From: Escherichia coli
GTDB taxonomy: Bacteria; Pseudomonadota; Gammaproteobacteria; Enterobacterales; Enterobacteriaceae
Reading direction: 5' to 3' (one strand)
Assembly (NCBI GenBank): GCA_005388305.1
Contig: GCA_005388305.1_4327.1
Length of the DNA stretch: 27,210 bases
The notes under the pieces were generated by a model, which was given only the letters and a program-made list of their open reading frames with translations, was not told the DNA's origin and did no database searches. A program made the translations under genes and the position numbers. Below are positions 5,638 through 27,210 of the stretch, in pieces. Each line of letters starts with the position of its first letter. The stretch's first letter is position 1.

Positions 5638-5774
5638 TACTCTTCGGATAACTTTTCCAGTACAAACGCCAGTTGCGCATTAGCGGCGTCTCTTTGCTGC
5701 CGTAGTCGCAGAACCTCTTCTTCTAGTTCCTTGATACGTTTTTGCAATGCGGGAATCGGGGCTATGATGTTCAT
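5638..5774 (-). CDS. small coiled-coil protein, 45 aa (below ORF-track cutoff)
   Basis: ATG at 5774-5772 overlaps the helicase TGA stop in an ATGA arrangement, with GAGGT RBS-like sequence upstream. Translation MNIIAPIPALQKRIKELEEEVLRLRQQRDAANAQLAFVLEKLSEE. Ends just before the terminator. Confidence 0.3.
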
Positions 5775-7195
5775 TTCTTACCTCTTCTCTTCATATAATT
5801 AAGCAACTCTTCCTGTACCGATTTCTTCTCGTCCGTACGCGCGGCAACAACCTCGTCAAGAGTGTCTTTAGCGACTATGTGATAAAGGAACACCGGGCGC
5901 TCGTGGCCTGCCTGCTTCTGGCGTACTGGACCTATACGCTCGACGACCTGCAAATAGTGCTCAAGGTTCCAGCCTTGTGAAATGAATGCCAGATGATGCC
6001 CGCCGTCCTGTAAATTCAAACCATGCCCGGCTGACGCGGGATGCACGCACAAAATCTCGATTTCGCCTCGGTTCCACGCCTCCATCTGCTTATTACCCTT
6101 CGCGCCTTTAGAAAATGCCTGCGCCTGTGGGAACCGCTTAAGGATACGCTCAAGTTCGTGCTTAAACTGATAGGCCACAAGTAACGGTGCGCCCTGTAAC
6201 TCCTCGACAATGGACTCGAGCGCATCCAGTTTCGTATCGTGCACTTTCTCCCAGTCTTTCGTTGCCTCACCGTCCGGCCCTGACACATATACGGCGCCGG
6301 ATGCAATCTGCAAACACTTTGACGTCTTCGCTGCGGCGTTAGCCGCTTCTACTTCCCCGCTCTCCAGTTCCGCGAATAACTTCTCCTCCATATCGATGTA
6401 CGCCTGGCGTGCTTTCTTCGGCAGGTCTATTTCAACTGGTACGATAATCGGCGCTTCGCAACCGAACCACTCGGCAGCGTCAATCGTGAGACTAATGTCC
6501 TTCATCTTCTGATGAATCTCGGTATCCGCACCCGGGCGGGCGTGATACTCACGCGCCATCGCCGATTTGCCTTTCTGTACAGAGTTGAACCAGCGGTCGG
6601 TGAACGCAGTGTACGATGAGCCGAGGCGCTCGCCAGCGTCGATAAACCAGTTCTGGCCCCACAGGTCTTTGAGGCCGTTAGGCGACGGTGTGCCCGTCAG
6701 ATTGATGAAACGCTTAACTTTACCGAACGCCACTTTGCTGAGCGCCTTTGCCCGCTTGCTACCACCAGAACGGCTACGGAATGACTTCAGTTTCGTACTC
6801 TCATCTGCAACGATAACCGTAAAAGGCCAGTCGTCTTTGCCGTAGTAGTCAATCAGCCACTCGATAACTTCGTAGTTGGTACACACCACGTTAACATCTG
6901 ACTCCAGCGCCGCGATGCGGCGCTTTTCTGAACCAGTTGCATCGACGACGCTCAGACATGGGAATTGCCATTTCTCTTGTTCTGCGGGCCACGTACCCGA
7001 CGCAACGCGCAGCGGGGCGAGGATTAACACGCGGTCGTCATCATTAAGTTGACCGTTGCGGAACAGTCTGTTTAACGCCCACAGTACGCTGCCAGTCTTC
7101 CCGGCGCCCATGCTCGCCCATATGTTGCAGCGATGGTGCTGCAACATGAACGAAGTCATGAGCTTCTGGTATTCGCGCCTTTGAAACTTACTCAT
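5771..7195 (-). CDS. SNF2-family (superfamily 2) DNA helicase, 474 aa
   Basis: Walker A ASMGAGKTG, motif II VIVADEST, motif III LTGTP, C-terminal motif VI-like QVVERIGPVRQKQAG. Start overlaps the methyltransferase stop by 8 nt. Confidence 0.8.
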   Translation of the reverse strand: MSKFQRREYQKLMTSFMLQHHRCNIWASMGAGKTGSVLWALNRLFRNGQLNDDDRVLILAPLRVASGTWPAEQEKWQFPCLSVVDATGSEKRRIAALESDVNVVCTNYEVIEWLIDYYGKDDWPFTVIVADESTKLKSFRSRSGGSKRAKALSKVAFGKVKRFINLTGTPSPNGLKDLWGQNWFIDAGERLGSSYTAFTDRWFNSVQKGKSAMAREYHARPGADTEIHQKMKDISLTIDAAEWFGCEAPIIVPVEIDLPKKARQAYIDMEEKLFAELESGEVEAANAAAKTSKCLQIASGAVYVSGPDGEATKDWEKVHDTKLDALESIVEELQGAPLLVAYQFKHELERILKRFPQAQAFSKGAKGNKQMEAWNRGEIEILCVHPASAGHGLNLQDGGHHLAFISQGWNLEHYLQVVERIGPVRQKQAGHERPVFLYHIVAKDTLDEVVAARTDEKKSVQEELLNYMKRRGKK

Positions 7196-8111
7196 TTACG
7201 GCCCCCATAAACGCCTTTATAAATTCGGCGGCTACTTGCGGGACGATGGCATTGCCGTAACCGCGCAATCGTCCCACTCTTGCGGGTATCCCATTAGCCA
7301 GCGGGAATGTGCCGGGTTCAACTGGCCTGAATTTTCCATCCCGGCATCCGAGCCAGTCAGCATCTGACCAGTAGCCGTGATGCGGATTGGTTGATTCACC
7401 AAATATTGTGCGTGCGTCGCCAGATTGCAATTCGCATTCGGCCTGTTGAATCTCTTTTCCGCATATGCTTGCGGGTCTTTCGCTCGGCTGTTGTTGTCGT
7501 CTGCAACTGATGGCGCTGGCCATGCAGCTAAATGGCGGGCTTGTCCGGCAAGCGTCTGCAAACCGCGTTTCGTATCTGGTTGCGGATTGGTGTTCGCGGT
7601 CGGCGTGTACCATTCTTTTTGCACCAAAAAAGAGTCGCTCTCTTTTGTGCGGTGCGCCGACGCTACAAGCTGGGAGTACGGCAAACCCGACGGCGTAGTC
7701 TTCTCCTTCCAGGTGAGTTTGTAAATCGCACATCCACGATTTTGCAATTGCTGGCGCAACCTGCTCCCCAAAGAGGACTGGAGGTCGGCACTCGCTGATA
7801 AGGTCGAGGAACACAGGTGCGAGGTGTCTCGGGTCGAACTGTCCGAGTTGCTTTCCCGCCGCGCTAAACGGTTGGCAAGGCGGGCTTCCCGTCCAGAGAG
7901 GCGTATCCTCCGAAACTCCCGCAAGTCTGAGCGCGAGAGGCCAGCCGCCGATACCAGCGAAAAAATGACACTGGGTGAACCCGTCAAGGTCTTCTGGCTT
8001 AACTTCGGTAATGCTTCTTTCATCTACAACTCCAAAAGGTATGTGACCATGTTTTATTAATTCACGCAGCCACGCGGCTGCGCCTTTATCCCATTCGTTG
8101 TAATAGTTCAT
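7188..8111 (-). CDS. DNA (cytosine-5)-methyltransferase, 307 aa
   Basis: Motif I HFFAGIGG (FxGxGG), motif IV GSPPCQPFSAAGK (catalytic PCQ), motif VIII-like PHKRERLFF, motif X-like LRGYGNAIVPQVA. Confidence 0.8.
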   Translation of the reverse strand: MNYYNEWDKGAAAWLRELIKHGHIPFGVVDERSITEVKPEDLDGFTQCHFFAGIGGWPLALRLAGVSEDTPLWTGSPPCQPFSAAGKQLGQFDPRHLAPVFLDLISECRPPVLFGEQVAPAIAKSWMCDLQTHLEGEDYAVGFAVLPACSVGAPHKRERLFFGAKRMVHADREHQSATRYETRFADACRTSPPFSCMASAISCRRQQQPSERPASICGKEIQQAECELQSGDARTIFGESTNPHHGYWSDADWLGCRDGKFRPVEPGTFPLANGIPARVGRLRGYGNAIVPQVAAEFIKAFMGAVNE

Positions 8112-8299
8112 TTCGCCACCAGCACCAGCTCTTTACGCCCGAACGCCGTAACGTTACCCGTTACATCTTCGATAACCAGTTTACCGTTCGACTCGACGAA
8201 CACCGTATCAACGGCAACAGGTTGACGTGTCTTAACGTTGAAAATCATGTCACCCGGTACGATGTCACGTGCTGGTTTGCGGTCGTATTCGTGTTTCAT
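8108..8299 (-). CDS. hypothetical protein, 63 aa
   Basis: ORF overlapping the methyltransferase start by 4 nt (translational coupling); a sigma70-like promoter lies immediately upstream. No recognisable motif. Confidence 0.5.
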   Translation of the reverse strand: MKHEYDRKPARDIVPGDMIFNVKTRQPVAVDTVFVESNGKLVIEDVTGNVTAFGRKELVLVAK

Positions 8300-8329
8300 T
8301 TCTCAATTCCTTATATTGTTGGTGTATGA

Positions 8330-8617
8330 CTAACTATAATAGTTCGCTATTAGGTCGTCAACCTGTTTAAACGAACCAACGACAAAAACATTCGCACCAC
8401 GTTTACGCATACGCTCGTGCTCACGTAACTGGTGTGGGTCTGGCTTCGTGTTTTCGTCTTTCTTAACCTCGACGAACAAGACGATGCCGCCGGGTAGAAT
8501 TACCAGCAGGTCGGGAGCGCCGGAGCGCCCCTCATAGGAAAGTTTACGAACGAGGCCGCCGATAGCCTCGAATCGCTCTTTTGCGTATTTCTGCACGCGC
8601 CCCTCAGGCGTACTCAT
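8330..8617 (-). CDS. VRR-NUC domain nuclease, 95 aa
   Basis: Small PD-(D/E)xK-type protein with GAPDLLV…VEVKK acidic/Lys catalytic pattern typical of VRR-NUC; GGGAGGGG RBS upstream of the ATG at 8617. Confidence 0.7.
   Translation of the reverse strand: MSTPEGRVQKYAKERFEAIGGLVRKLSYEGRSGAPDLLVILPGGIVLFVEVKKDENTKPDPHQLREHERMRKRGANVFVVGSFKQVDDLIANYYS
8333..8361 (-). promoter_or_regulatory. sigma70-like promoter (TTGACG-17-TATAGT on the - strand) inside a copy of the conserved 30-bp element
   Basis: + strand reads AACTATAATAGTTCGCTATTAGGTCGTCAAC; reverse complement gives -35 TTGACG (8361-8356), 17-bp spacer, -10 TATAGT (8338-8333). Overlaps the 3' end of the VRR-NUC CDS and sits ~35 nt upstream of the 63-aa gene. 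Confidence 0.5.
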
Positions 8618-8698
8618 CTATACACCCCTCCCGTTTCGTATGCGCGATACCGCAGCGAGGGCAGATTCGACAGTCTTCTTCATATAACCAGTAAATTT

Positions 8699-8830
8699 TC
8701 ATTCCAGCACCCACAGATAAATTGCGATGAATATACCCAATACGGCAACCATCATGCCGTATTGGCCTTCGCGACAGTAGACACCGGCAGCAAATCCCGT
8801 CAGTACCGCGATAATCAGTTTACTTAGCAT
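8699..8830 (-). CDS. putative small hydrophobic membrane peptide, 43 aa (below ORF-track cutoff)
   Basis: ATG at 8830 overlaps the 3' end of the polymerase gene by 11 nt. Translation MLSKLIIAVLTGFAAGVYCREGQYGMMVAVLGIFIAIYLWVLE has two hydrophobic stretches. No independent support. Confidence 0.2.
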   Translation of the reverse strand: MLSKLIIAVLTGFAAGVYCREGQYGMMVAVLGIFIAIYLWVLE

Positions 8831-11099
8831 AACGGTGCACCTCTTCCCCGGCCCATGTTAGCGGGAATCCTTCAGCCCATTCAGGTAATGAGCATAACAG
8901 GTCACCCATCTCTTTAACCGTGTACTCCGGCGTGTCTGGCGTTTCGGCGACACATTCATCGTGTACGTGGAGTACAATTGGGTAGCCCGCTGCCTCGACC
9001 GTCAGGAGTCCGTTAACCAGTAAATCACGGCACAACGCCTGGATGATGTTTTCACACAATTTTCCGCCGTGTGTGTACAAAGTTGTCCACTGGCGGGTGG
9101 TCTGATTTTCGCCCTGGTATTTAATGCGAACGTTAGTTGTTACGCGCCCGTCCTCGTCAGTCTCTTTAGTGACGCTTAAACCTATACCAGGGTAGGACAT
9201 AATGCGCCCGGACGGCAACTCCACGCACAACCACCAACCCGGCACAAAGTTACCCTGTCTGTCTTTCTCTTTAGTACGCCATATGCGAATAGCTCTGTCG
9301 CCGTTAAGGCGGACTCTGGCCCCCGCCCAAAACTCTCGTCCCGGATTTCTGATTGCGGCAATTACCGAATCCTTAAGGTCGTTCCAGAATTTCACTGTTT
9401 CCGGATGGGCCTCCCGCCACATGCGCTTGATAGCATCGCAGGTGCGCCAGACTTCCTTTGGCAGCACATAGGAGGCCCGTTCGTCTTTTTTACCGGGTTT
9501 TGGGGGTCGCTTAGCCTCCTGAATCCGCGCCCATTCATAACCTCTGGCAGTAGCCGCCCATATATGATCAGGGAATGTCCCCCGCATTGTCTCCGTCATT
9601 TTAAANNNNNNNNNNNNNNNNNNNNNNNNNNNNNNNNNNNNNNNNNNNNNNNNNNNGCCGCCCTCATAGCCGAGGCCAAGCTCGCAACATTTCCCGACCT
9701 GTCGTAGGTCTTTACGGGTGGCTTTCAGTTCTATGGGGTCCATACCAAACATCTTACCAGCTGTGGCGCAATAAATATCAATCCCCGCGCGGAACGTATC
9801 AAGGGCGGACGTCTCCCCCGCCGTCCAGGCTAACCCACGCCCTTCCACGTTCGAGTAGTCGGCAACGAGCAACTTATTGCCTTTTTCCGGGATAATGCAA
9901 CTGCGGACAGTTGAGGCTGTTAGTTTAGATACGTCGAAACGGCGATGCGCCCGACCTTTTAACAGCAAATTGATGCCGAACGATAAGGGGTTAAGCCTGC
10001 GGTTCCAGTCTTCGTCGGACTCCCACGGCTGGCGTACAAGTTTCTTTTCCTCGTTAGTCGGGTCGTCATGGTAGTACCCGCGCGACAGGTTCTGCGGTTG
10101 GAACCCTTTACCCGCAAATCGTAAAGTGCGCTTTGCCCCACCGTACTGGATGCAACCGCGACGGCGTCCGTCTTTGGACCGTCCTAGCAGTAGCGGTTTG
10201 TATTTTGTTGACGCCGTGGAGGCCGCGCCGAGGCGCATCTCAATGATTGTGCGTGCATCGTCCGGTAAGTCGTCGTCCTCTAGCAAGCCTTCGAGCGTTG
10301 CTTTCTGCGCATTATAAATATTGTAGGCCGGTGCCAGTTCCCGGAGGATTGGCAGAAAATCTTTGCCAGTTAGTTTCCCTCCGAATTTCGCGCGGGCCTC
10401 GTTTTTTAGCTCTTGCTTGTGGCGTTCCACTGCCGCTACCGCCGCCTCAGCAAGAGCCGTGTCAACAAAGAAGCCTCGGTCGTTAATTAACTGGTCCAGT
10501 TCCAGTACACGGTCTTCGAACTCGGAGTTACCCCAACGCGGCAACTTATGGAACACTTCACGCATCGCGGTGATGTCGCTAACGGCGTACTTGATGAACA
10601 GCGCCCACTCATCCGGGTGCGTTTCAGCAGTGTAGCGGCGAATTTTGTAGTTCTTCGGCGTCGGTTTAGAGAAACGCTGAATAAGCGCTTTGCCTCGTTT
10701 GTCTTTCGCGTTGTCTGCAGACACGCCAAGCACTTCGCACAATGCGTCGAGTGAACCCGGCAGCGCGTGACGAAACGCCCAAATCATCGTATCAATGGTG
10801 TTGCTTACCGGAATATCAAAGCCCCAGCAGTGTTTCATGATGAGCCTGTCGAACATTGAGCCGTTGTGCCACACCATCTTGATGCGACTGTTTGGCTTAA
10901 CCAGGCGGCGCAGTGCGCGGTGCAAATCTCCCGGCATGTCGCTGCCGTCGGTGCAATCCCATACCTGTACAGGCTCGTCGTCAAAAGCGTATGTGCAGAT
11001 AAGCACTTCGGTAGTTGGATGTTCGGCGTAAGCGTAGGAGCCGACTTTCTTCAAATCGGCTTCGGAGAATGTTTCAAAGTCTAAGAACAGGTAACTCAT
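8820..11099 (-). CDS. family A DNA polymerase with 3'-5' exonuclease domain, 759 aa (interrupted by an assembly gap)
   Basis: Exo I LFLDFETFS, Exo II WHNGSMFDRL, Exo III YAVSDITAM, pol motif A LLVADYSNVEGRGLAW, motif B RKDLRQVGKCCELGLGYEGG, motif C VLHVHDECV. A run of 17 X residues in the translation corresponds to the N run. Confidence 0.9.
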   Translation of the reverse strand: MSYLFLDFETFSEADLKKVGSYAYAEHPTTEVLICTYAFDDEPVQVWDCTDGSDMPGDLHRALRRLVKPNSRIKMVWHNGSMFDRLIMKHCWGFDIPVSNTIDTMIWAFRHALPGSLDALCEVLGVSADNAKDKRGKALIQRFSKPTPKNYKIRRYTAETHPDEWALFIKYAVSDITAMREVFHKLPRWGNSEFEDRVLELDQLINDRGFFVDTALAEAAVAAVERHKQELKNEARAKFGGKLTGKDFLPILRELAPAYNIYNAQKATLEGLLEDDDLPDDARTIIEMRLGAASTASTKYKPLLLGRSKDGRRRGCIQYGGAKRTLRFAGKGFQPQNLSRGYYHDDPTNEEKKLVRQPWESDEDWNRRLNPLSFGINLLLKGRAHRRFDVSKLTASTVRSCIIPEKGNKLLVADYSNVEGRGLAWTAGETSALDTFRAGIDIYCATAGKMFGMDPIELKATRKDLRQVGKCCELGLGYEGGXXXXXXXXXXXXXXXXXFKMTETMRGTFPDHIWAATARGYEWARIQEAKRPPKPGKKDERASYVLPKEVWRTCDAIKRMWREAHPETVKFWNDLKDSVIAAIRNPGREFWAGARVRLNGDRAIRIWRTKEKDRQGNFVPGWWLCVELPSGRIMSYPGIGLSVTKETDEDGRVTTNVRIKYQGENQTTRQWTTLYTHGGKLCENIIQALCRDLLVNGLLTVEAAGYPIVLHVHDECVAETPDTPEYTVKEMGDLLCSLPEWAEGFPLTWAGEEVHRYAK
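9606..9656. other. assembly gap (51 consecutive N) inside the DNA polymerase gene
   Basis: Directly visible run of n characters; its length is a multiple of 3 so the frame is formally preserved, but the true length and sequence are unknown. Confidence 0.95.
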
Positions 11100-11119
11100 T
11101 ATTTTCGACCCTTAGTAAA

Positions 11120-11139
11120 AAGGCCCAATGAAGGGCCTT
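11120..11139 (-). terminator. intra-operon hairpin (putative partial terminator/attenuator) between the SSB-like gene and the polymerase
   Basis: AAGGCCC-AATGAA-GGGCCTT stem-loop in the 60-nt gap between the two genes; same stem sequence as the terminators at 5613 and 26948; only a short T-run follows on the - strand. Confidence 0.35.
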
Positions 11140-11158
11140 AGTTAAATTGATTCAGATA

Positions 11159-11785
11159 TTAGCGGCGACGACGCTCGCGGCGCGGTGCTTCATCTTCTTC
11201 GTCGTCTTCCAGGTCGTTGACGCTTGCAGCGACTTTAGAACCACCGAACGCTTTACCTTCGCCTACGTATTTAATCGCCAGCAGGTTAACCCCGAGAACT
11301 TTATATTTCTGGCTGAACCAGATTTCGACGCTTACGTTAGCGACGCAGCCGCTGTAAACCTGTTCACCTTCAATCTGTTCGCCGTCTACATTGAAGTCCT
11401 GTTCTACCTGAGTCTCGCCTTTTTTAGAGGTTACAATCAGTGGCTGTTTCTGTGCCTTCGCCTTGAAGTAGAAGCCTTCCGGGAAGTCTTCAAACGGATT
11501 GTCGCGCTCGGCAATGTCTTTAATCGCACATTTATCCATGTGCTTACCTTCGCCATAGTTGGACTTCATCCACTTCTCAGCGGCAGCTGCGCCCAACGCT
11601 TCTTCAACCACAGCGTAAACGGTGTCGTAGAGCGCGTCGATTTGTGCGTGGTCAGACGGCAGGATGATAGTCGCGCTGTACTGGCCTTTAGTGATTGAGC
11701 CATCATCGTTTTCACGGTCTTTTTCGCGTTCGAATACGTTAACCCATGCAGTGTTTACTTTACGCAGATTCAGTTTAATACCCAT
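11159..11785 (-). CDS. putative single-stranded DNA-binding protein (DUF2815-like), 208 aa
   Basis: Sits between the DUF2800 nuclease and the DNA polymerase, which is the conserved DUF2800-DUF2815-PolA gene order in phage replication modules; highly charged C-terminal tail (DLEDDEEDEAPRRERRRR); its own strong promoter immediately upstream. Confidence 0.45.
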   Translation of the reverse strand: MGIKLNLRKVNTAWVNVFEREKDRENDDGSITKGQYSATIILPSDHAQIDALYDTVYAVVEEALGAAAAEKWMKSNYGEGKHMDKCAIKDIAERDNPFEDFPEGFYFKAKAQKQPLIVTSKKGETQVEQDFNVDGEQIEGEQVYSGCVANVSVEIWFSQKYKVLGVNLLAIKYVGEGKAFGGSKVAASVNDLEDDEEDEAPRRERRRR

Positions 11786-11838
11786 CGTGATTTCTCGCTT
11801 TTCAGTTTACTCCGGGAACTGCCCGGCCAGTGATTAGA

Positions 11839-11867
11839 ACTATAATAGCTAACTATTCAGGTGTCAA
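11839..11867 (-). promoter_or_regulatory. sigma70-like promoter (TTGACA-17-TATAGT on the - strand) inside a copy of the conserved 30-bp element
   Basis: + strand GAACTATAATAGCTAACTATTCAGGTGTCAACAC; - strand -35 TTGACA (11867-11862), 17-bp spacer, -10 TATAGT (11844-11839); ~50 nt upstream of the SSB-like ATG. Confidence 0.55.
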
Positions 11868-11871
11868 CACT

Positions 11872-13122
11872 TTATTCCAAATCTTCTTCACTAACCTGAT
11901 TCCACTCAGGACGTTTGTCGTCTGCCGTTGCGACACATGGTGCGCCTGGCTTACGGGTAATAAACGGCTCAAGCGCCGCCATCTCATCCGCAGAAAGAAC
12001 TTTTGCTGCCTCCGTAGGGGACATCAATACCTCTTTTTTGAGAATGTCGCCGTGTGACACTTCAATCGCATCGGCATCTTTCCACGCACGATTACCCGGG
12101 CGGCCTTCTACCAGTTTGTACCCTGGCACTTTCTTACCGGAATGCAATGTGGCGGACATCGCTTTCTCAACCTTGTCGATGTGCTGGCGTAACAGCGGCA
12201 ACTTCTCATACTCAACTACGAGTTGCTCCGTCGTCAGTTCCAGCACAAAGTCGTCTTCAAGTTCTTCCGCCAGTACAGAATTAACCGTCTTTGTACGCGC
12301 GGCACACTGTTCAGAGAACCGGCACCACTGGCAACCATCGACCGACGGCCTGAAGTCAGACGCTTTCAGGTTCTTTTTACCACGGAAATACGCATCAAGA
12401 GCTAACAGTGCACGTTTCTGCGCAAACTTAGCGAACAGTTCCAGACCTTCAACCGAGATGTCCCACTCCGACGCACCGCCAGCATACGGCTGGAATATTA
12501 CCAGGCGAACAACAGTGATGTTATATCGTCTCTTGAGTCGGCGATAAACACCGAGAGCATAAAGCATAAGCTGCTTGTTTTCTTTCGCTTCGACGCGATG
12601 CCGTCCAGTTTTAAGGTCGCCAATAATGAGCATGTGCTCGTCGGTGTTCGCCAGTTCCTGAACGGCAACAATGTCGGCGGTTCCGAATGTCTCAACGCCT
12701 TCGTAGCCTGGATGCAATACCTCACTAAGATTGACACGCATCTCGAGTTTGGCGTAAGTCGCTACATCGATAACAGCTTTGCAGTGGTCGGTGTACTTGC
12801 GCACCTGCTCAATCATGTCAGCCGTAATCAGTACCGCGCCTTTCATCGGGCTGATTAGCGCCTTAATCTGGCCTTTACCCTCATCCAGCACGTAAGCACC
12901 TACTTCGCGCCCTAACGGCAACGCAGTGCCTTTGATGTACTGGTTTAAGTGCATCTCAGCTATGGTGTGCATAGCCGTTCCTAATACGGCGGCTTTACCT
13001 GACGTGTTAGGAATATCTTTTTCACAGGCCAGTGATGCACTGCACGCCAGCCACTTTTTAGCACCAGACGGCGACAGCAGGGCGTGTACGTCATTATTGC
13101 CACCACGTTCTTTTAGTTTCAT
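11872..13122 (-). CDS. PD-(D/E)xK exonuclease, DUF2800 / Cas4-RecB-like, probably with Fe-S cluster, ~416 aa
   Basis: N-terminal HALLSPSGAKKWLACSASLAC, nuclease core GTADIVAV…IIGDLKTG, C-terminal cysteine cluster CQWCRFSEQC (one N-terminal plus three C-terminal Cys, as in Cas4/AddB Fe-S nucleases). Start set at ATG 13122 (MKLKERGG…) because it forms an ATGA overlap with the upstream small ORF; the ORF-track start is 13143. Confidence 0.75.
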   Translation of the reverse strand: MKLKERGGNNDVHALLSPSGAKKWLACSASLACEKDIPNTSGKAAVLGTAMHTIAEMHLNQYIKGTALPLGREVGAYVLDEGKGQIKALISPMKGAVLITADMIEQVRKYTDHCKAVIDVATYAKLEMRVNLSEVLHPGYEGVETFGTADIVAVQELANTDEHMLIIGDLKTGRHRVEAKENKQLMLYALGVYRRLKRRYNITVVRLVIFQPYAGGASEWDISVEGLELFAKFAQKRALLALDAYFRGKKNLKASDFRPSVDGCQWCRFSEQCAARTKTVNSVLAEELEDDFVLELTTEQLVVEYEKLPLLRQHIDKVEKAMSATLHSGKKVPGYKLVEGRPGNRAWKDADAIEVSHGDILKKEVLMSPTEAAKVLSADEMAALEPFITRKPGAPCVATADDKRPEWNQVSEEDLE

Positions 13123-13277
13123 GCTCTTAACCCCACACCCCATTTAGCTTTACGCGTTTTACGTTTGCAGGCGCACGTGTCGCCACTACGGTTGAAGATG
13201 ACCAGCCAAGTTGAGTTACTCACTCGAAAAGGCTGGTGACGTCTAACAAATAGAAGTCGCGCTTTACGGTTCGTCAT
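13119..13277 (-). CDS. small basic protein, 52 aa (below ORF-track cutoff)
   Basis: ATG 13277-13275 overlaps the TGA of the 90-aa gene (ATGA), and its own TGA overlaps the ATG at 13122 of the nuclease (ATGA). Translation MTNRKARLLFVRRHQPFRVSNSTWLVIFNRSGDTCACKRKTRKAKWGVGLRA. Confidence 0.3.
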   Translation of the reverse strand: MTNRKARLLFVRRHQPFRVSNSTWLVIFNRSGDTCACKRKTRKAKWGVGLRA

Positions 13278-13546
13278 ACCCTGACCTCCCACTGGTCGAT
13301 TAAATGCCGCGTCTTATGGTCGCAATGCATAGCCCAGCTATACATCGACTCGAAGACATAAAAGTCACTTTTAACGAAAGTCGTGCGCTTAATCTGCGAC
13401 AGGTGACGGCCTATATCTTTCGGCTTCGGTATTTTTCCAAGGTAGGCCATCTCTTCCATCTGGTGTGCACCGGACGGCGCACGCAATAACCATAGCGCCT
13501 CTGTGTTATCCCGCCTGTCAACGGCGCGGTATAGTTGGTAAATCAT
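13274..13546 (-). CDS. hypothetical protein, 90 aa
   Basis: ORF with GAGGG RBS-like sequence upstream of ATG 13546; part of the leftward operon; no recognisable motif. Confidence 0.5.
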   Translation of the reverse strand: MIYQLYRAVDRRDNTEALWLLRAPSGAHQMEEMAYLGKIPKPKDIGRHLSQIKRTTFVKSDFYVFESMYSWAMHCDHKTRHLIDQWEVRV

Positions 13547-13566: not shown

Positions 13567-13582
13567 GCGGCCCGAAGGCCGC
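13567..13582 (-). other. GC-rich hairpin between the acidic-protein gene and the 90-aa gene
   Basis: GCGGCC-CGAA-GGCCGC stem-loop in the 43-nt intergenic gap; possible attenuator or RNA-stability element. Confidence 0.3.
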
Positions 13583-13589
13583 GGGATAG

Positions 13590-14111
13590 TTATTCTTCTT
13601 CGAAATACTTGTTCTTGATTGCTGTCAGGCGCTCCAGATACTCAGCCAGGTCTTCGTCTTTAATCGCTGCAATCTTCATCTTCTTACCGGTGAACTCTTC
13701 CAGCAGTTCGTCAGAATCGTCGCACGCGGCCTCGCTTGGGCCTTCGTTAATCGCATCGTCGATAGCCTGAATCTGGTCGCGCAGAGACTGGTAATCGACT
13801 TCTTCTTTCTCTTCTTCCGGCTCTGGCGTTGGTTCCTCTACTTTGTCCTTACGCGGCTTGCGCTTCGGCTTCTCTTCTTCTGCGGGTTTAGCGTCAACGG
13901 TGTCTTCACCTTCTACCGGGATTTCTTTCGCCTTCTCGACTTCTTCAAGTGCTTTAGCCAGCTCTTTTTTAACTGTTTCTACCCCCGTGACCGCGACGTC
14001 AACAGTCAATTCACCTACAGATTTGCTAGTCGGTTGTTTCACACTGTTTGCAGCAATCAGTTCGTGGGCGACTACGAAACGTTCCAGTAATACTAAGAAT
14101 TTCTCTAACAT
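13590..14111 (-). CDS. highly acidic hypothetical protein, 173 aa
   Basis: First gene downstream of the promoter at 14143-14171; GAGAGGAGA RBS; extremely D/E-rich with one Lys/Arg patch (KPKRKPRKDK). Confidence 0.6.
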   Translation of the reverse strand: MLEKFLVLLERFVVAHELIAANSVKQPTSKSVGELTVDVAVTGVETVKKELAKALEEVEKAKEIPVEGEDTVDAKPAEEEKPKRKPRKDKVEEPTPEPEEEKEEVDYQSLRDQIQAIDDAINEGPSEAACDDSDELLEEFTGKKMKIAAIKDEDLAEYLERLTAIKNKYFEEE

Positions 14112-14142
14112 TATTTATTCTCCTCTCGTTTGGTATGGGCTA

Positions 14143-14171
14143 ACTATAATAGTGAACTATTCACTTGTCAA
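14143..14171 (-). promoter_or_regulatory. sigma70-like promoter (TTGACA-17-TATAGT on the - strand) inside a copy of the conserved 30-bp element, in a divergent intergenic region
   Basis: + strand TAACTATAATAGTGAACTATTCACTTGTCAATGG; - strand -35 TTGACA (14171-14166), 17-bp spacer, -10 TATAGT (14148-14143). A second partial copy of the element (GGTACTATTCACATATCAA, 14197-14215) lies just before the rightward XRE gene. Confidence 0.55.
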
Positions 14172-14235
14172 TGGGCTTTTCTAAAATAATTAATATGGTA
14201 CTATTCACATATCAACTGACTAAGGAGTAATTGAC

Positions 14236-14451
14236 ATGCAACCATCTGAACTAGGCATCCGTGTAGAACAGCGCCGTAAAGAACTCAGTATTTCCCAGCG
14301 CCGTCTGGCTGTCCTGACCGGCGTTTCCCAGGGTGCAATTAACCAGCTTGCACTCGGGGTAACGCGGGACGTCCGCCCAGCAACGCTGTTTAAACTGGCG
14401 GAAGTGCTAGAGGTAGACGCCAAGTGGCTGGCGTTCGGTGAAGGGGCTTAA
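14236..14451 (+). CDS. XRE-family helix-turn-helix transcriptional regulator (Cro/CI-like), 71 aa
   Basis: HTH signature QRRLAVLTGVSQGAINQLALG; AAGGAG RBS before ATG 14236; followed immediately by a terminator; the only rightward gene inside the leftward operon. Confidence 0.8.
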   Translation: MQPSELGIRVEQRRKELSISQRRLAVLTGVSQGAINQLALGVTRDVRPATLFKLAEVLEVDAKWLAFGEGA

Positions 14452-14467: not shown

Positions 14468-14662
14468 TTGCACCTTTATCGGGTATCTTTTGCGAAACTT
14501 ACCTAACCCGCAGTATACGCTGTAAGCCTCTGTGTAACTGTACACAACATGATACCCGCGCCCGTAAGGAACTACGTTAAGAACTTCCACTACTTCGCCT
14601 CTGTGGTTGGTGCATTTATTACCTTTAAGTTCGTCGCTTACTTCTTTAAATTTACCGCTCAT
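14465..14662 (-). CDS. hypothetical protein, 65 aa
   Basis: ATG at 14662 forms an ATGA overlap with the primase-helicase stop (14659-14661); no recognisable motif. Confidence 0.45.
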   Translation of the reverse strand: MSGKFKEVSDELKGNKCTNHRGEVVEVLNVVPYGRGYHVVYSYTEAYSVYCGLGKFRKRYPIKVQ

Positions 14663-16926
14663 TCCAAATCCTCCTCTGTCACTGTCAGCATCTCATTCGG
14701 TTCATATATTGTCTTCGGAATCTTGTTATCAGTTATCCGGGTGTTCAGCCTGTAACGGCAAGGGATTATCTGATTGTTTTCGTCAGTCCCCGGAACAAGA
14801 TACCCAGCCTCAACCATTTTCTTAATCTTCCCGCGTTCTATGGCTTCTTTGGAGTTAAACGCCTTTGCATTGGGGTCAGACTGTGCGAGCTTATTAGCGG
14901 CGGCGACTGTGATGCCTTCGTTGCCGTTGTAGGTTCCTTCCGCCAGTTCAAACGCCGCCAGTATCGTGGCTTCCGAACTGTTGACGGCGTTCTCCATGGT
15001 TCTACGTACGTTTTCTTTACCTTCCTTAGTCAGTCCTTCTTCCCGCTCTTTCTCCTCGTCAGTCTTGAACGGCTCGAAACCCCACGGCATTAACACAAGT
15101 GCCTTATGCGGCTCCGGCAGGTCGAGGTTTACGATTGTGCCGTATTCCTCCGTGCTACCGAGGAACTCAACCGCACGGTACTCTTTCGGCGGCGGCGCTT
15201 CACGGAACTGTACAGACTCCAGCACCATACCAACCGTCTTCTGTTGAGGCCCGTGCTTGAATTTCGAGTGGTATACATTTATCTGGCGGTCGGTAGCTCG
15301 TTCGATTGTCAGTTCCACGTCGACGCCAGCATACAGCGCCCCACTGCCACGGGCTTTCTTTCCGCCCTTCGGCGTATGGTGGACAACGCCTACCGCAGCT
15401 TTAGTCGCGTCACGTACTTCTTTCAGGATGGCGATAACCTTACCCATGCCGATTGCCGTTGATGAACTGTTCTCGTCGAACTTATCAATCGTCAGGGCTA
15501 GCGTCTGGTTGAGGGTGTCGAACGCAACCATGCCGATGGGTTCGTCACCCGCAGTTTCACGCATCAACTTAATCAGGCTTTTCAGTTTTCCGACTTCGCC
15601 CATGTCGATGACATGTACATAATCTTTACCTTCCTCGCCATATTTAGCCGCGAGCGCATCGATACGGGTGCGGGTAGCTGCGCCGCCTTCACCGTCGATA
15701 TAGAAATGGTGGCAACGCTGCGTATCTGCCCCCGCAAACCGGTATCCGGCGGCGCTCAGGTACGCCATCCCCAGCGTATAGAACGATTTGTACGTGCCGG
15801 ATTCCCCGACAATATCCCAGATACAATCTGACGGCATGTACCCTTCAACGACGAAATCCGCCTTTACCGGTTCCGGTAACTCGTCATCCTCTGAGTCCTC
15901 GTCATCTTCCAGGTCGTCGAGGCTGCATGAAACAGATTCACGTGCACCCCATCCGATGGCCTCTGCGACTTCACTGAACGGCAGCCCCGTCGCATCGCAC
16001 GCATACTTCCACACCTCTTTCGGTGACATGCCTTCGGTCGCCGTAATGTCGGTGTCGTGAATCATTGTTACGTTCGGCGCCTCATATCCCTCTCGCGGGA
16101 AGCACAGCAGGAAGTCATCCGGGCGCGGCGTCGGGTCGCTGTAGTTTTCTGCGTGTTCTGGCGTAGCTGGCATCTTAAGGCCTCGTGGCGTCATGATACC
16201 GCCATACTCGAACGCCAGTGCCTCGAACGCGTCGGTAAACGCGGTGCGCAGTTCTTCCGGTATCTGGTAATCCGATGCGCTGCTAACGTCAACGGCGGGG
16301 ATGCCTTCCAGTAACTCGTCCGGGTCAATCAGGTCGTTGCGGCGTGACCAGATAACGGTAGAGCCAACCGGAGGCAGGTACATCGGTTGCGAAAGAGTGA
16401 ACCCGCTGCGGTCAGCACCCATGCTTTTGAAGAAGTGTTCCAGCAATCCATGGCGAACACGGATGATGTCACCACCTTCGACCGGACGGGCCAGCGGCAT
16501 GACGACGCGAAAGCGCGGGGACTCGTCGGTATGTGATGCCGTGGTATAGAGGCACATGGCCTGGCGGCTACGCTTAACCAGGCGTACAGCTTCCTGATAC
16601 TCTTCCGGCGTTGCACTGTCGAAGTCCAGATACGCCAGCGACGATTTGCTTACAGACGCATCACAGCGATAGAAGAAACCCTTACGCGCTTGCTTAAAGT
16701 CGCCGGTTTTCGGGTCTTTTACAGTGCTGTGCGTCGAGTCGCACGCGGCGGTGATATAACCGGGCGCGGTCTTCGGGTTAATTCCGTCACGGACAGCATC
16801 AAGCGGCTGGATTAACTCTTTCAGGTCGTCCAGTGTTGCCGTGTGTGTGGTTCTGACGTTTATATCCTTTTTCTCTGCCCGCGCGTTGCGACGTGACCAC
16901 GAGTAGGATAAAATTACATCGGACAT
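14659..16926 (-). CDS. replicative primase-helicase (N-terminal primase-polymerase-like region plus C-terminal RecA/RepA-like AAA_25 ATPase), 755 aa
   Basis: Walker A GESGTYKS, Walker B MVAFDTL, VVHHTPKGG motif typical of RepA-like ATPases; N-terminal half has an acidic LAYLDFD motif reminiscent of prim-pol catalytic sites. Confidence 0.75.
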   Translation of the reverse strand: MSDVILSYSWSRRNARAEKKDINVRTTHTATLDDLKELIQPLDAVRDGINPKTAPGYITAACDSTHSTVKDPKTGDFKQARKGFFYRCDASVSKSSLAYLDFDSATPEEYQEAVRLVKRSRQAMCLYTTASHTDESPRFRVVMPLARPVEGGDIIRVRHGLLEHFFKSMGADRSGFTLSQPMYLPPVGSTVIWSRRNDLIDPDELLEGIPAVDVSSASDYQIPEELRTAFTDAFEALAFEYGGIMTPRGLKMPATPEHAENYSDPTPRPDDFLLCFPREGYEAPNVTMIHDTDITATEGMSPKEVWKYACDATGLPFSEVAEAIGWGARESVSCSLDDLEDDEDSEDDELPEPVKADFVVEGYMPSDCIWDIVGESGTYKSFYTLGMAYLSAAGYRFAGADTQRCHHFYIDGEGGAATRTRIDALAAKYGEEGKDYVHVIDMGEVGKLKSLIKLMRETAGDEPIGMVAFDTLNQTLALTIDKFDENSSSTAIGMGKVIAILKEVRDATKAAVGVVHHTPKGGKKARGSGALYAGVDVELTIERATDRQINVYHSKFKHGPQQKTVGMVLESVQFREAPPPKEYRAVEFLGSTEEYGTIVNLDLPEPHKALVLMPWGFEPFKTDEEKEREEGLTKEGKENVRRTMENAVNSSEATILAAFELAEGTYNGNEGITVAAANKLAQSDPNAKAFNSKEAIERGKIKKMVEAGYLVPGTDENNQIIPCRYRLNTRITDNKIPKTIYEPNEMLTVTEEDLE

Positions 16927-17850: not shown

Positions 17851-17879
17851 TTGCACACCCAAACATAATAGGGTACTAT
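17851..17879 (+). promoter_or_regulatory. sigma70-like promoter (TTGCAC-17-TACTAT) inside a copy of the conserved element, driving the rightward small-gene block
   Basis: -35 TTGCAC 17851-17856, spacer containing CATAATAG, -10 TACTAT 17874-17879, then AGGAG RBS and ATG 17914. Confidence 0.5.
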
Positions 17880-17913
17880 TCACTTATCGAAACGAGACAG
17901 AGGAGTGAGGGTT

Positions 17914-19307: not shown

Positions 19308-19336
19308 TTGCACACTAAGATATAATAGGCTACTAT
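19308..19336 (+). promoter_or_regulatory. sigma70-like promoter (TTGCAC-17-TACTAT) inside a copy of the conserved element
   Basis: -35 TTGCAC 19308-19313, spacer containing TATAATAG, -10 TACTAT 19331-19336; RBS GAGAGGAGAG and ATG 19368 follow. Confidence 0.5.
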
Positions 19337-19367
19337 TCATTTACACGAGCGAGAGGAGAGACAGAAT

Positions 19368-21842: not shown

Positions 21843-21864
21843 ATCTATTTTCTGCAATGACTAG

Positions 21865-21893
21865 TTGACTATTACCATCGACCCTATTATATT
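21865..21893 (+). promoter_or_regulatory. sigma70-like promoter (TTGACT-17-TATATT) within a variant of the conserved element
   Basis: -35 TTGACT 21865-21870, -10 TATATT 21888-21893; flanked by duplicated CCATCGAC (21875-21882 and 21897-21904) and CTATTA motifs; RBS GGAG and ATG 21927 follow. Confidence 0.5.
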
Positions 21894-27181: not shown

Positions 27182-27210
27182 TTCGATAACTGAATAGTAC
27201 ACTATTATAT
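27182..27210 (-). promoter_or_regulatory. copy of the conserved promoter element on the - strand (partial, cut by the window end)
   Basis: Reverse complement reads ATATAATAGTGTACTATTCAGTTATCGAAA, near-identical to the copy at 17864-17893; -10 TACTAT would be 27200-27195; the -35 lies beyond the window. Confidence 0.35.

Follow-up and report, generated by a model that had tools for sequence, protein, structure and literature searches.

A conserved acidic protein at the head of the K1G-like replication operon is a candidate tethered replication adaptor and very unlikely to be an Ocr-like anti-restriction factor

The 173-aa acidic protein encoded at positions 13590..14111 on the minus strand of the 27,210-nucleotide stretch of DNA analysed here (the window) is the product of an already catalogued but uncharacterised core phage gene. 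Its modular architecture and its genomic context suggest that it may be an abundant, stoichiometric, tethered adaptor of a T7-like replication/recombination module, a reading to which we assign a probability of roughly one in three. An earlier reading of the window, made from its sequence only, had proposed an Ocr-like DNA mimic with an anti-restriction role or, as a second option, an acidic scaffold for replication proteins. The first of these proposals found no match in homology or fold to Ocr, and it also sits poorly with a chain that contains 15% K+R, is about 45% disordered by prediction and is encoded by a core gene of a replication operon. The second lies near to the explanation preferred here.

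The window is a fragment of a K1G-like Kagunavirus (Guernseyvirinae) genome. Between positions 13000 and 15000 its DNA is 95% identical to that of Escherichia phage K1G (Kagunavirus, Guernseyvirinae), and the gene for the acidic protein can therefore be assigned to a virulent K1G-like siphovirus; the same region also has hundreds of weaker DNA matches among Salmonella Jerseyvirus phages. The reading frame starts with ATG and ends at the stop codon 13590-13592, and its translation contains all of the strings that had been singled out from the sequence (EEPTPEPEEEKEE, DDSDELLEEF, the C-terminal YFEEE and the basic KPKRKPRKDK). The protein is the orthologue of K1G ORF38 (ADA82284.1, annotated ‘hypothetical protein’), to which it is 98% identical, and it matches the phrog_3127 profile over its full length (residues 1-173 on profile positions 1-177/178, E 7.5e-68). 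Homologues were detected by tblastn in 478 phage records.

The gene is under purifying selection, as estimated from 72 homologous genes with pS of approximately 0.4-0.57: pN/pS was 0.17 for codons 1-25, 0.48 for codons 26-104 and 0.37 for codons 105-173. This pattern is that of a real protein whose N-terminal conservation acts at the protein level. A 113-aa plus-strand ORF that overlaps the gene (13843-14184) was rejected as spurious, as it lies antisense to a gene with purifying selection at the codon level.

Pfam and NCBIfam scans of the protein returned no family, and the PHROG scan gave phrog_3127 alone. With the Pfam-A scan relaxed to E <= 0.1, only DUF719 and PH_35 appeared, both below threshold, and PF10991, the OB-fold ssDNA-binding family of T7 gp2.5/Enc34-type SSBs, was absent from the protein in the Pfam scan. 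In a profile search against 1.84 billion representative proteins the family amounted to only 57 clusters, all of which shared the same architecture or were fragments of it, and none was an informative relative; it is a narrow family, restricted to phages. An ACP-like reading of the string ‘GDSDE...LLEEF’ was also considered and discarded, as distant members do not keep the Ser and neither a fold nor a sequence match to ACP was obtained.

Calculation of pI and charge bore out the description of the protein as highly acidic: it has a mass of 19.5 kDa, a pI of 4.50, 47 Asp/Glu residues (27%), 26 Lys/Arg residues (15%) and a net charge of -21, and it is the most acidic product among the 18 major ORFs of the window. 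The sequence-only reading had further described it as dominated by Asp/Glu runs, which is true of the protein in the window but is not a conserved feature of the family, given the near-neutral linker described below. Among 37 representative members nearly all have a pI of 4.4-4.9, and consistent acidity is confined to the C-terminal 66 residues (net charge between -8 and -21 for typical members, with a mean of -11). The linker, instead, is a polyampholyte (approximately 23% D/E and 21% K/R, with a mean net charge of -1.7 and a range of -12 to +6 across the 37 members). Similarly, the ‘single basic patch’ noted from the sequence is the densest one, but lysines are spread through the linker and the C-terminal domain.

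A three-part anatomy was agreed upon by the alignments of close (A1) and distant (A2) relatives and by two AlphaFold2 (AF2) runs. The first part is a hydrophobic N-terminal helix (LEKFLVLLERFVVAHELIAAN, residues 2-22; 14046..14108, minus strand), which is the best-conserved part of the family and coincides with the codons of lowest pN/pS (0.17). Arg11, Ala15, Glu17 and Ala20 are invariant over 29 diverse sequences, the helix was modelled with a pLDDT of 84-88 in the AF2 run with the deeper alignment, and it combines high hydrophobicity with a low hydrophobic moment. The third part, residues 105-173 (13593..13799, minus strand), is an acidic three-helix bundle (pLDDT 86-96) with a net charge of -12 and a pI of 4.2. 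Its helices were predicted by AF2 at residues 107-123, 127-141 and 152-171, and it ends in an aromatic and acidic KYFEEE. In several homologues this C-terminal domain is tandemly duplicated. A fold search with the AF2 model gave only non-specific three-helix-bundle matches, and a PDB sequence profile search returned nothing relevant and no Ocr.

Between the two helical parts lies a mixed-charge linker (residues 24-104; 13800..14042, minus strand) that is predicted to be disordered, with an AF2 pLDDT of about 50-60 and an indel-rich alignment, so that predicted disorder covers about 45% of the chain. Linker length is strongly variable, from about 40 residues in the 123-aa member P0251 (a second short-linker member, P0252, has 130 aa) up to about 100, and protein length ranges from 123 to 219 aa across the family. 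Guernseyvirinae linkers carry two conserved short motifs, PVEGEDxxDxKP and EEKPKRKPR. In the window, the first corresponds to PVEGEDTVDAKP (residues 65-76; 13884..13919, minus strand), which is nearly invariant in Guernseyvirinae, with Glu67, Gly68, Glu69, Asp73, Lys75 and Pro76 conserved at 90-100%. The second lies in the basic patch EEKPKRKPRK (residues 79-88; 13848..13877, minus strand), in which Glu79, Lys81, Pro82, Lys83 and Lys85 are invariant in alignment A1; distant members have AKKPAKK- or RGR-type repeats in its place.

The gene had been described as the first after a strong promoter copy, and this proved correct. A sigma-70-type promoter, TTGACA-17-TATAGT, matching 11 of 12 consensus positions, lies directly ahead of it (14143..14171, minus strand), and a motif scan located the palindrome AATAG-N4-CTATT, a candidate operator, in its spacer. 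A weaker, distal copy of the promoter/operator, TTGATA-18-AATTAT (14186..14215, minus strand), has one degenerate half-site. The window holds seven copies of the promoter motif TGAATAGTnnnCTATTAT, where chance alone predicts 0.01, and copies also precede the helicase-primase block and the SSB gene. Other lineages have a related promoter, TTGCA-N-TATTATAGT, approximately 45-50 nt upstream of the gene for the acidic protein, and in a few genomes another small ORF comes first.

Translation is served by a strong Shine-Dalgarno sequence, AGGAG (14120..14124, minus strand), 8 nt upstream of the ATG. Eight nucleotides past the stop codon begins a GC hairpin, GCGGCC-UUCG-GGCCGC (13567..13582, minus strand), which is followed by UUUAAC and fails a simple terminator consensus; it is a candidate leaky terminator or 3' mRNA-stabilising stem-loop. 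Kagunavirus and Jerseyvirus loci retain this hairpin no matter which gene comes next, and a different GC-rich hairpin occupies the same site downstream of the gene in other lineages. These signals make it plausible that the promoter-proximal protein is among the earliest and most abundant products of the operon, as the sequence-only reading had supposed, and the combination of tandem promoters, strong Shine-Dalgarno sequence and 3' hairpin would be in keeping with a stoichiometric role more than with a catalytic one.

The divergent neighbour of the gene encodes a 71-aa Cro/CI-type HTH regulator (14236..14451, plus strand; PF01381, E 1.2e-11) that is DicA-like, is conserved at this position in relatives and is the likely binder of the AATAG-N4-CTATT palindromes. 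On the other side, the rest of the leftward operon (5771..13546, minus strand) was delineated by domain matches and by synteny in relatives. It comprises, in the order of transcription, a 90-aa ORF (13274-13546), a DUF2800 PD-(D/E)XK exonuclease (11872-13143), a 208-aa Enc34/T7 gp2.5-type SSB (11159-11785; PF10991), PolA (8820-11099), a VRR-NUC protein (8330-8617), a C5-cytosine methylase of the phage's own (7188-8111) and an SNF2 helicase (5771-7195). With its gp2.5-type SSB, PolA and helicase-primase (14659-16926), the module is T7-like.

The order of small HTH regulator, divergent promoter region and acidic protein is kept in K1G, in the Jerseyvirus SLMP1 and in the Cornellvirus FSL SP-031, and also in 17 of the 18 distant IMG/VR loci that were mapped. 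The acidic protein is then followed by zero to five variable small ORFs or HNH genes and by the DUF2800 exonuclease, SSB, PolA, VRR-NUC and SNF2 genes in turn. The gene is first or nearly first in the operon in Kagunavirus, Jerseyvirus and Cornellvirus-like phages, at 30-40% identity, and in Dhillonvirus, where the BASEL phage GeorgBuechner shows this arrangement around an unmistakable member of the family, gp48 (its annotated start is probably 60 codons too early). This replication module accompanied each family member whose genomic context was examined. Within Guernseyvirinae, records with the acidic gene match those with the SSB gene closely in number, at 348 against 354 for Salmonella phages, 11 against 11 for ‘Kagunavirus’ and 5 against 5 for Serratia phages. 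The fixed synteny and the matching counts together indicate that this is a core gene of the T7-like replication/recombination module, whereas the small ORFs adjacent to it are variable.

Guernseyvirinae and Dhillonvirus are among the most frequently isolated siphoviruses of Salmonella and E. coli and are used in phage therapy and biocontrol. The gene for the acidic protein, which heads their replication operon, is one of their few universally conserved genes to which no function has been assigned, and identifying its partner would help to complete the picture of a T7-like replication module that is widespread and built from DUF2800 nuclease, gp2.5-type SSB and PolA.

An explanation that accommodates the core-gene status, the position at the operon head, the expression signals and the two-ended modular build is that the protein acts as an adaptor for that module. 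The anatomy itself is of the adaptor type, with an invariant N-terminal helix (pN/pS 0.17), a near-neutral linker that varies in length and a folded acidic bundle that is sometimes duplicated. The hydrophobic helix would anchor the protein to a conserved partner, or would drive self-association, and the disordered mixed-charge linker would serve as a flexible spacer of variable length, within which PVEGEDxxDxKP and the basic KPKRKPR might make further weak contacts to protein or DNA. The acidic bundle could then dock on a basic surface of some other part of the module, for example polymerase, SSB, exonuclease or helicase-primase, a task analogous to that of the acidic C-terminal tails in the T7 replisome. 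The suggestion of an acidic scaffold for replication proteins, made from the sequence alongside the Ocr-like one, thus fits the evidence better than the latter; what it retains of conjecture is the role itself, to which context and architecture point.

It is through acidic tails that T7 gp2.5 makes contact with the polymerase and the primase-helicase (PMC5686142), and an acidic module in a T7-like system could likewise dock on basic patches of its partners. The acidic C-terminal tails of T7 gp2.5 and gp4 differ from the present case in that they are disordered tails ending in an aromatic residue, whereas here a folded three-helix bundle belongs to a polypeptide of its own, which also bears an anchoring helix. 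Among the closest systems is also the C-terminal domain of lambda Red-beta, a three-helix bundle that binds lambda Exo and the tail of the host SSB.

Two considerations weigh against an adaptor. Position alone is no proof of function, as the T7 inhibitors gp2, gp5.5 and gp5.9 are scattered among replication genes; and the name ‘late protein’, given to the homologue from phage MB78, fits an early replication role poorly, if it is accurate. In the only Guernseyvirinae RNA-seq paper that was found, on phage K1B4, the orthologue vB_Eco_K1B4_003 goes unmentioned in the text and its temporal class is not given. A genome-reduction study of phage seszw was set aside as irrelevant, seszw being a Skatevirus.

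The habit of T7 of setting inhibitors among its replication genes lends itself to a different reading, in which the protein is a decoy or DNA mimic directed against some host DNA-binding protein that is not a type I restriction enzyme, with RecBCD, RNA polymerase and nucleoid proteins such as H-NS as examples. The bundle would occupy the DNA-binding groove of the target, and the N-terminal helix and linker would add avidity. This is possible, though we regard it as unlikely. In its favour, the C-terminal domain, at -0.17 per residue and a pI of 4.2, is in the range of T7 gp5.9 (-0.15) and approaches Ocr (-0.24). The general marks of DNA mimics (small size, a pI below 5 and at least 20% D+E) are likewise present, with 173 aa, pI 4.50 and 27% for the whole protein and pI 4.2 for the C-terminal domain, and the gene is promoter-proximal with strong expression signals. 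A DNA mimic would also be expected to bear a rigid array of negative surface charges with the spacing of DNA phosphates and to bind a DNA-binding protein; the C-terminal domain was modelled as a generic three-helix bundle. DNA mimics have diverse folds, and a missing fold match does not exclude mimicry; in hhalign comparisons, the family alignment matched T7 gp5.9, gp2 and gp5.5 with probabilities of only 0.09%, 0.13% and 0.45%, respectively.

Two further observations speak for a decoy. A small ORF annotated ‘Ral’ lies immediately upstream of the acidic gene in one Kagunavirus. The Old system responds to RecBCD inhibition. Sensitivity of Kagunavirus isolates to the Old system of P2 is reported as variable in the BASEL study. 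Against a decoy, the gene is universal although Old sensitivity varies. A counter-defence gene would also not usually be a strict core gene that keeps its synteny with the replication module in different phage genera. Moreover, the best-conserved element of the protein is the hydrophobic helix rather than the acidic surface, and the linker shows no conservation of charge and often contains basic repeats.

A third reading is that of a self-assembling hub or condensate scaffold which would concentrate phage DNA and replication proteins in a focus, by analogy with PopZ. Caulobacter PopZ, which is acidic and approximately 170-180 aa long, begins with a short conserved helix, continues through a disordered linker rich in Pro and Glu and ends in a helical region, and the acidic protein parallels it in its short N-terminal helix, charged Pro-rich disordered region, C-terminal helices, size of about 170 aa and acidity. 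The N-terminal helix would recruit clients, the polyampholyte region would make multivalent weak contacts (those of its basic blocks with DNA), and the C-terminal domain would oligomerise. H1-like AKKPAKK and RGRGR repeats in the linkers of distant members, the greater valency conferred by tandem duplication of the C-terminal domain and the signals for high expression are all consistent with this.

We nevertheless consider a PopZ-like hub doubtful. The argument for it is an architectural analogy throughout: the protein has no sequence relation to PopZ or to any Pfam family, its linker is a polyampholyte with basic blocks in which it differs from PopZ, and a linker that can shrink to about 40 residues weakens a mechanism driven by disorder. 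A related reading, in which the N-terminal helix, disordered tether and sometimes duplicated bundle of an abundant protein would make up a new kind of phage hub that gathers exonuclease, SSB, polymerase and phage DNA in a membrane-less replication/recombination focus in small siphoviruses, or in which a tethered DNA mimic would regulate the replication proteins of the phage itself, is a little more doubtful again.

A regulatory function is less probable still. It would make the protein an anti-repressor or co-factor of the divergent HTH protein, or would have it modulate host RNA polymerase and so set the timing of the leftward operon, and it can draw on the small HTH regulator that is divergent from the gene in Guernseyvirinae-like relatives, on a different HTH-bearing protein in Dhillonvirus and on the palindromic candidate operator in the promoter copies. 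However, the HTH partners of Guernseyvirinae and Dhillonvirus are not homologous to each other, whereas the acidic proteins are, and comparisons with Pfam, with PHROG and, by hhalign, with T7 gp2 gave no resemblance to known anti-repressors or sigma-binding proteins.

An Ocr-like role for the protein, as a DNA mimic that inhibits type I restriction-modification enzymes, is highly improbable, despite a likeness that is easily listed. It shares with T7 Ocr a small size, acidity (pI 4-4.5, 27-29% D/E) and the position of first gene behind strong host-type promoters, and its C-terminus is superficially Ocr-like in acidity. Ocr is a compact, fully folded helical body that displays carboxylates in the manner of bent B-DNA. 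The acidic protein has no such body: nearly half of it is predicted to be disordered, it has three times more basic residues (15% K+R against 5% in Ocr), and its net charge per residue is -0.12 for the whole protein against -0.24. The family alignment A2 matched Ocr (gp0.3) with an hhalign probability of 0.2%, fold and PDB sequence searches gave no match to Ocr or ArdA, and the Pfam scan at E <= 0.1 was equally without a match to Ocr.

The biology of the carriers points the same way. The phage encodes a C5-cytosine methylase of its own, and the acidic gene, far from being a sporadic accessory, belongs to the syntenic core of the replication operon. In the BASEL study, Kagunavirus and Dhillonvirus isolates were highly or considerably sensitive to restriction-modification systems, EcoKI being among the panel members for those phages that were typed with the delta-RM host. 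Such restriction sensitivity would hardly be expected if an Ocr-like protein were universal in the carrier genera and highly expressed, and an ‘anti-restriction / Ocr-like’ label for phrog_3127 would be unjustified.

Least probable of all is a late or morphogenetic function such as that of a scaffolding protein, for which there is the name ‘13.88 kDa late protein’ and the fact that helical, charged proteins can be scaffolds, and against which stand a location in the replication operon far from the terminase and head region (which begins at about 23.6 kb), a promoter/operator type in common with the helicase-primase and SSB genes, and the lack of traceable data behind the label ‘late’ in a literature search that did not reach the primary papers on MB78. 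The name, which is often given automatically to members of phrog_3127, originates from UniProt entry Q9T1Z8 of Salmonella phage MB78. This 123-aa entry belongs to the same family and is 83% identical to part of the acidic protein, yet it covers only part of it; the name has been carried over and is uninformative as an annotation. A late protein of MB78 made by ribosomal frameshifting is reportedly the subject of a paper from 2000. A Foldseek search of BFVD recovers Q9T1Z8 itself, together with St162 and Gp46 of Edwardsiella phage eiAU.

The promoter/operator motif TGAATAGTnnnCTATTAT occurs seven times in the window, where 0.01 copies would be expected by chance. It is found on the (-) strand at 11842-11859, 14146-14163, 14190-14207, 17865-17882 and 19322-19339, and on the (+) strand at 21858-21875 and 27191-27208. 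The palindrome within the motif, AATAG-N4-CTATT, sits inside a TTGACA-17-TATAGT promoter. The motif probably marks where the early and middle promoters of the phage lie, and also where the 71-aa HTH protein, the product of 14236-14451 (+), binds.

Immediately 3' of the acidic ORF (13590-14111 (-)) there is a conserved UUCG-looped GC hairpin, at 13567-13582 (-) in the window and at the corresponding position in loci L003-L056 of relatives that carry homologues of the acidic gene. The hairpin is retained even in loci with a different downstream gene, and in the distant lineages L008, L014 and L053 unrelated GC hairpins are found at the same site. Possible roles for the element at 13567-13582 are leaky termination, or stabilisation of the mRNA so as to boost expression of the acidic gene alone.

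The acidic protein of the window, a Kagunavirus, shares 86-90% identity with the copies of some Salmonella Jerseyvirus phages but only 73-80% with many of those from other Kagunavirus genomes. By contrast, the SSB encoded next to it retains at least 95% identity within Kagunavirus and has ~77% identity to Jerseyvirus. These contrasting patterns of sequence identity point to mosaic exchange, or to fast evolution of the linker, at the acidic-gene locus.

Several members of the acidic-protein family depart from the form seen in the window. In Cornellvirus-like phages, the C-terminal three-helix domain is duplicated in tandem, in homologues that are ~210-220 aa long (P0144, P0164, P0185, P0233, P0244, P0248 and P0249). 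Dhillonvirus gp48 (Escherichia phage GeorgBuechner, NC_073066.1, L077, 4052-4750) also belongs to the family; it is annotated as 232 aa, with the family N-terminus MFEQIVNLITRGVVALE beginning at residue 61, and the annotated start is probably 60 codons too early. In L075 (IMGVR_UViG_3300037587_000427, from 8001), the N-terminal helix of the family (MLEKILALLERFVIAHE) is joined to an unrelated Q/P/A-rich protein of ~270 aa that includes the motif 'RPWDKRIHGSGHRF', which suggests that the helix is a portable module. The PolA of this genome is only 28% identical to that of the window.

The gp2.5/Enc34-type SSB (11159-11785 (-)) has the C-terminus ...DLEDDEEDEAPRRERRRR, in which an Arg-rich tip comes after an acidic stretch, in place of the usual acidic-aromatic end. 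The tblastn matches to the SSB end near residue ~190/208, which may simply be due to low-complexity filtering.

Accessory genes insert preferentially on either side of the acidic gene. Some Kagunavirus genomes have a Ral-annotated ORF of 59 aa separating the acidic gene from the promoter region (in Escherichia phage vB_EcoS_GZMU_E2010, at 2828-3007 of L004, annotated 'putative restriction alleviation Ral protein'), and an HNH gene comes next.

Many Salmonella enterica assemblies include complete Cornellvirus-like phage genomes of ~42-44 kb as contigs of their own (proteins P0121-P0240), and the window too is a phage contig within an 'E. coli' assembly. Such contigs come from virulent phages that are either in the carrier state or contaminants in isolate sequencing.
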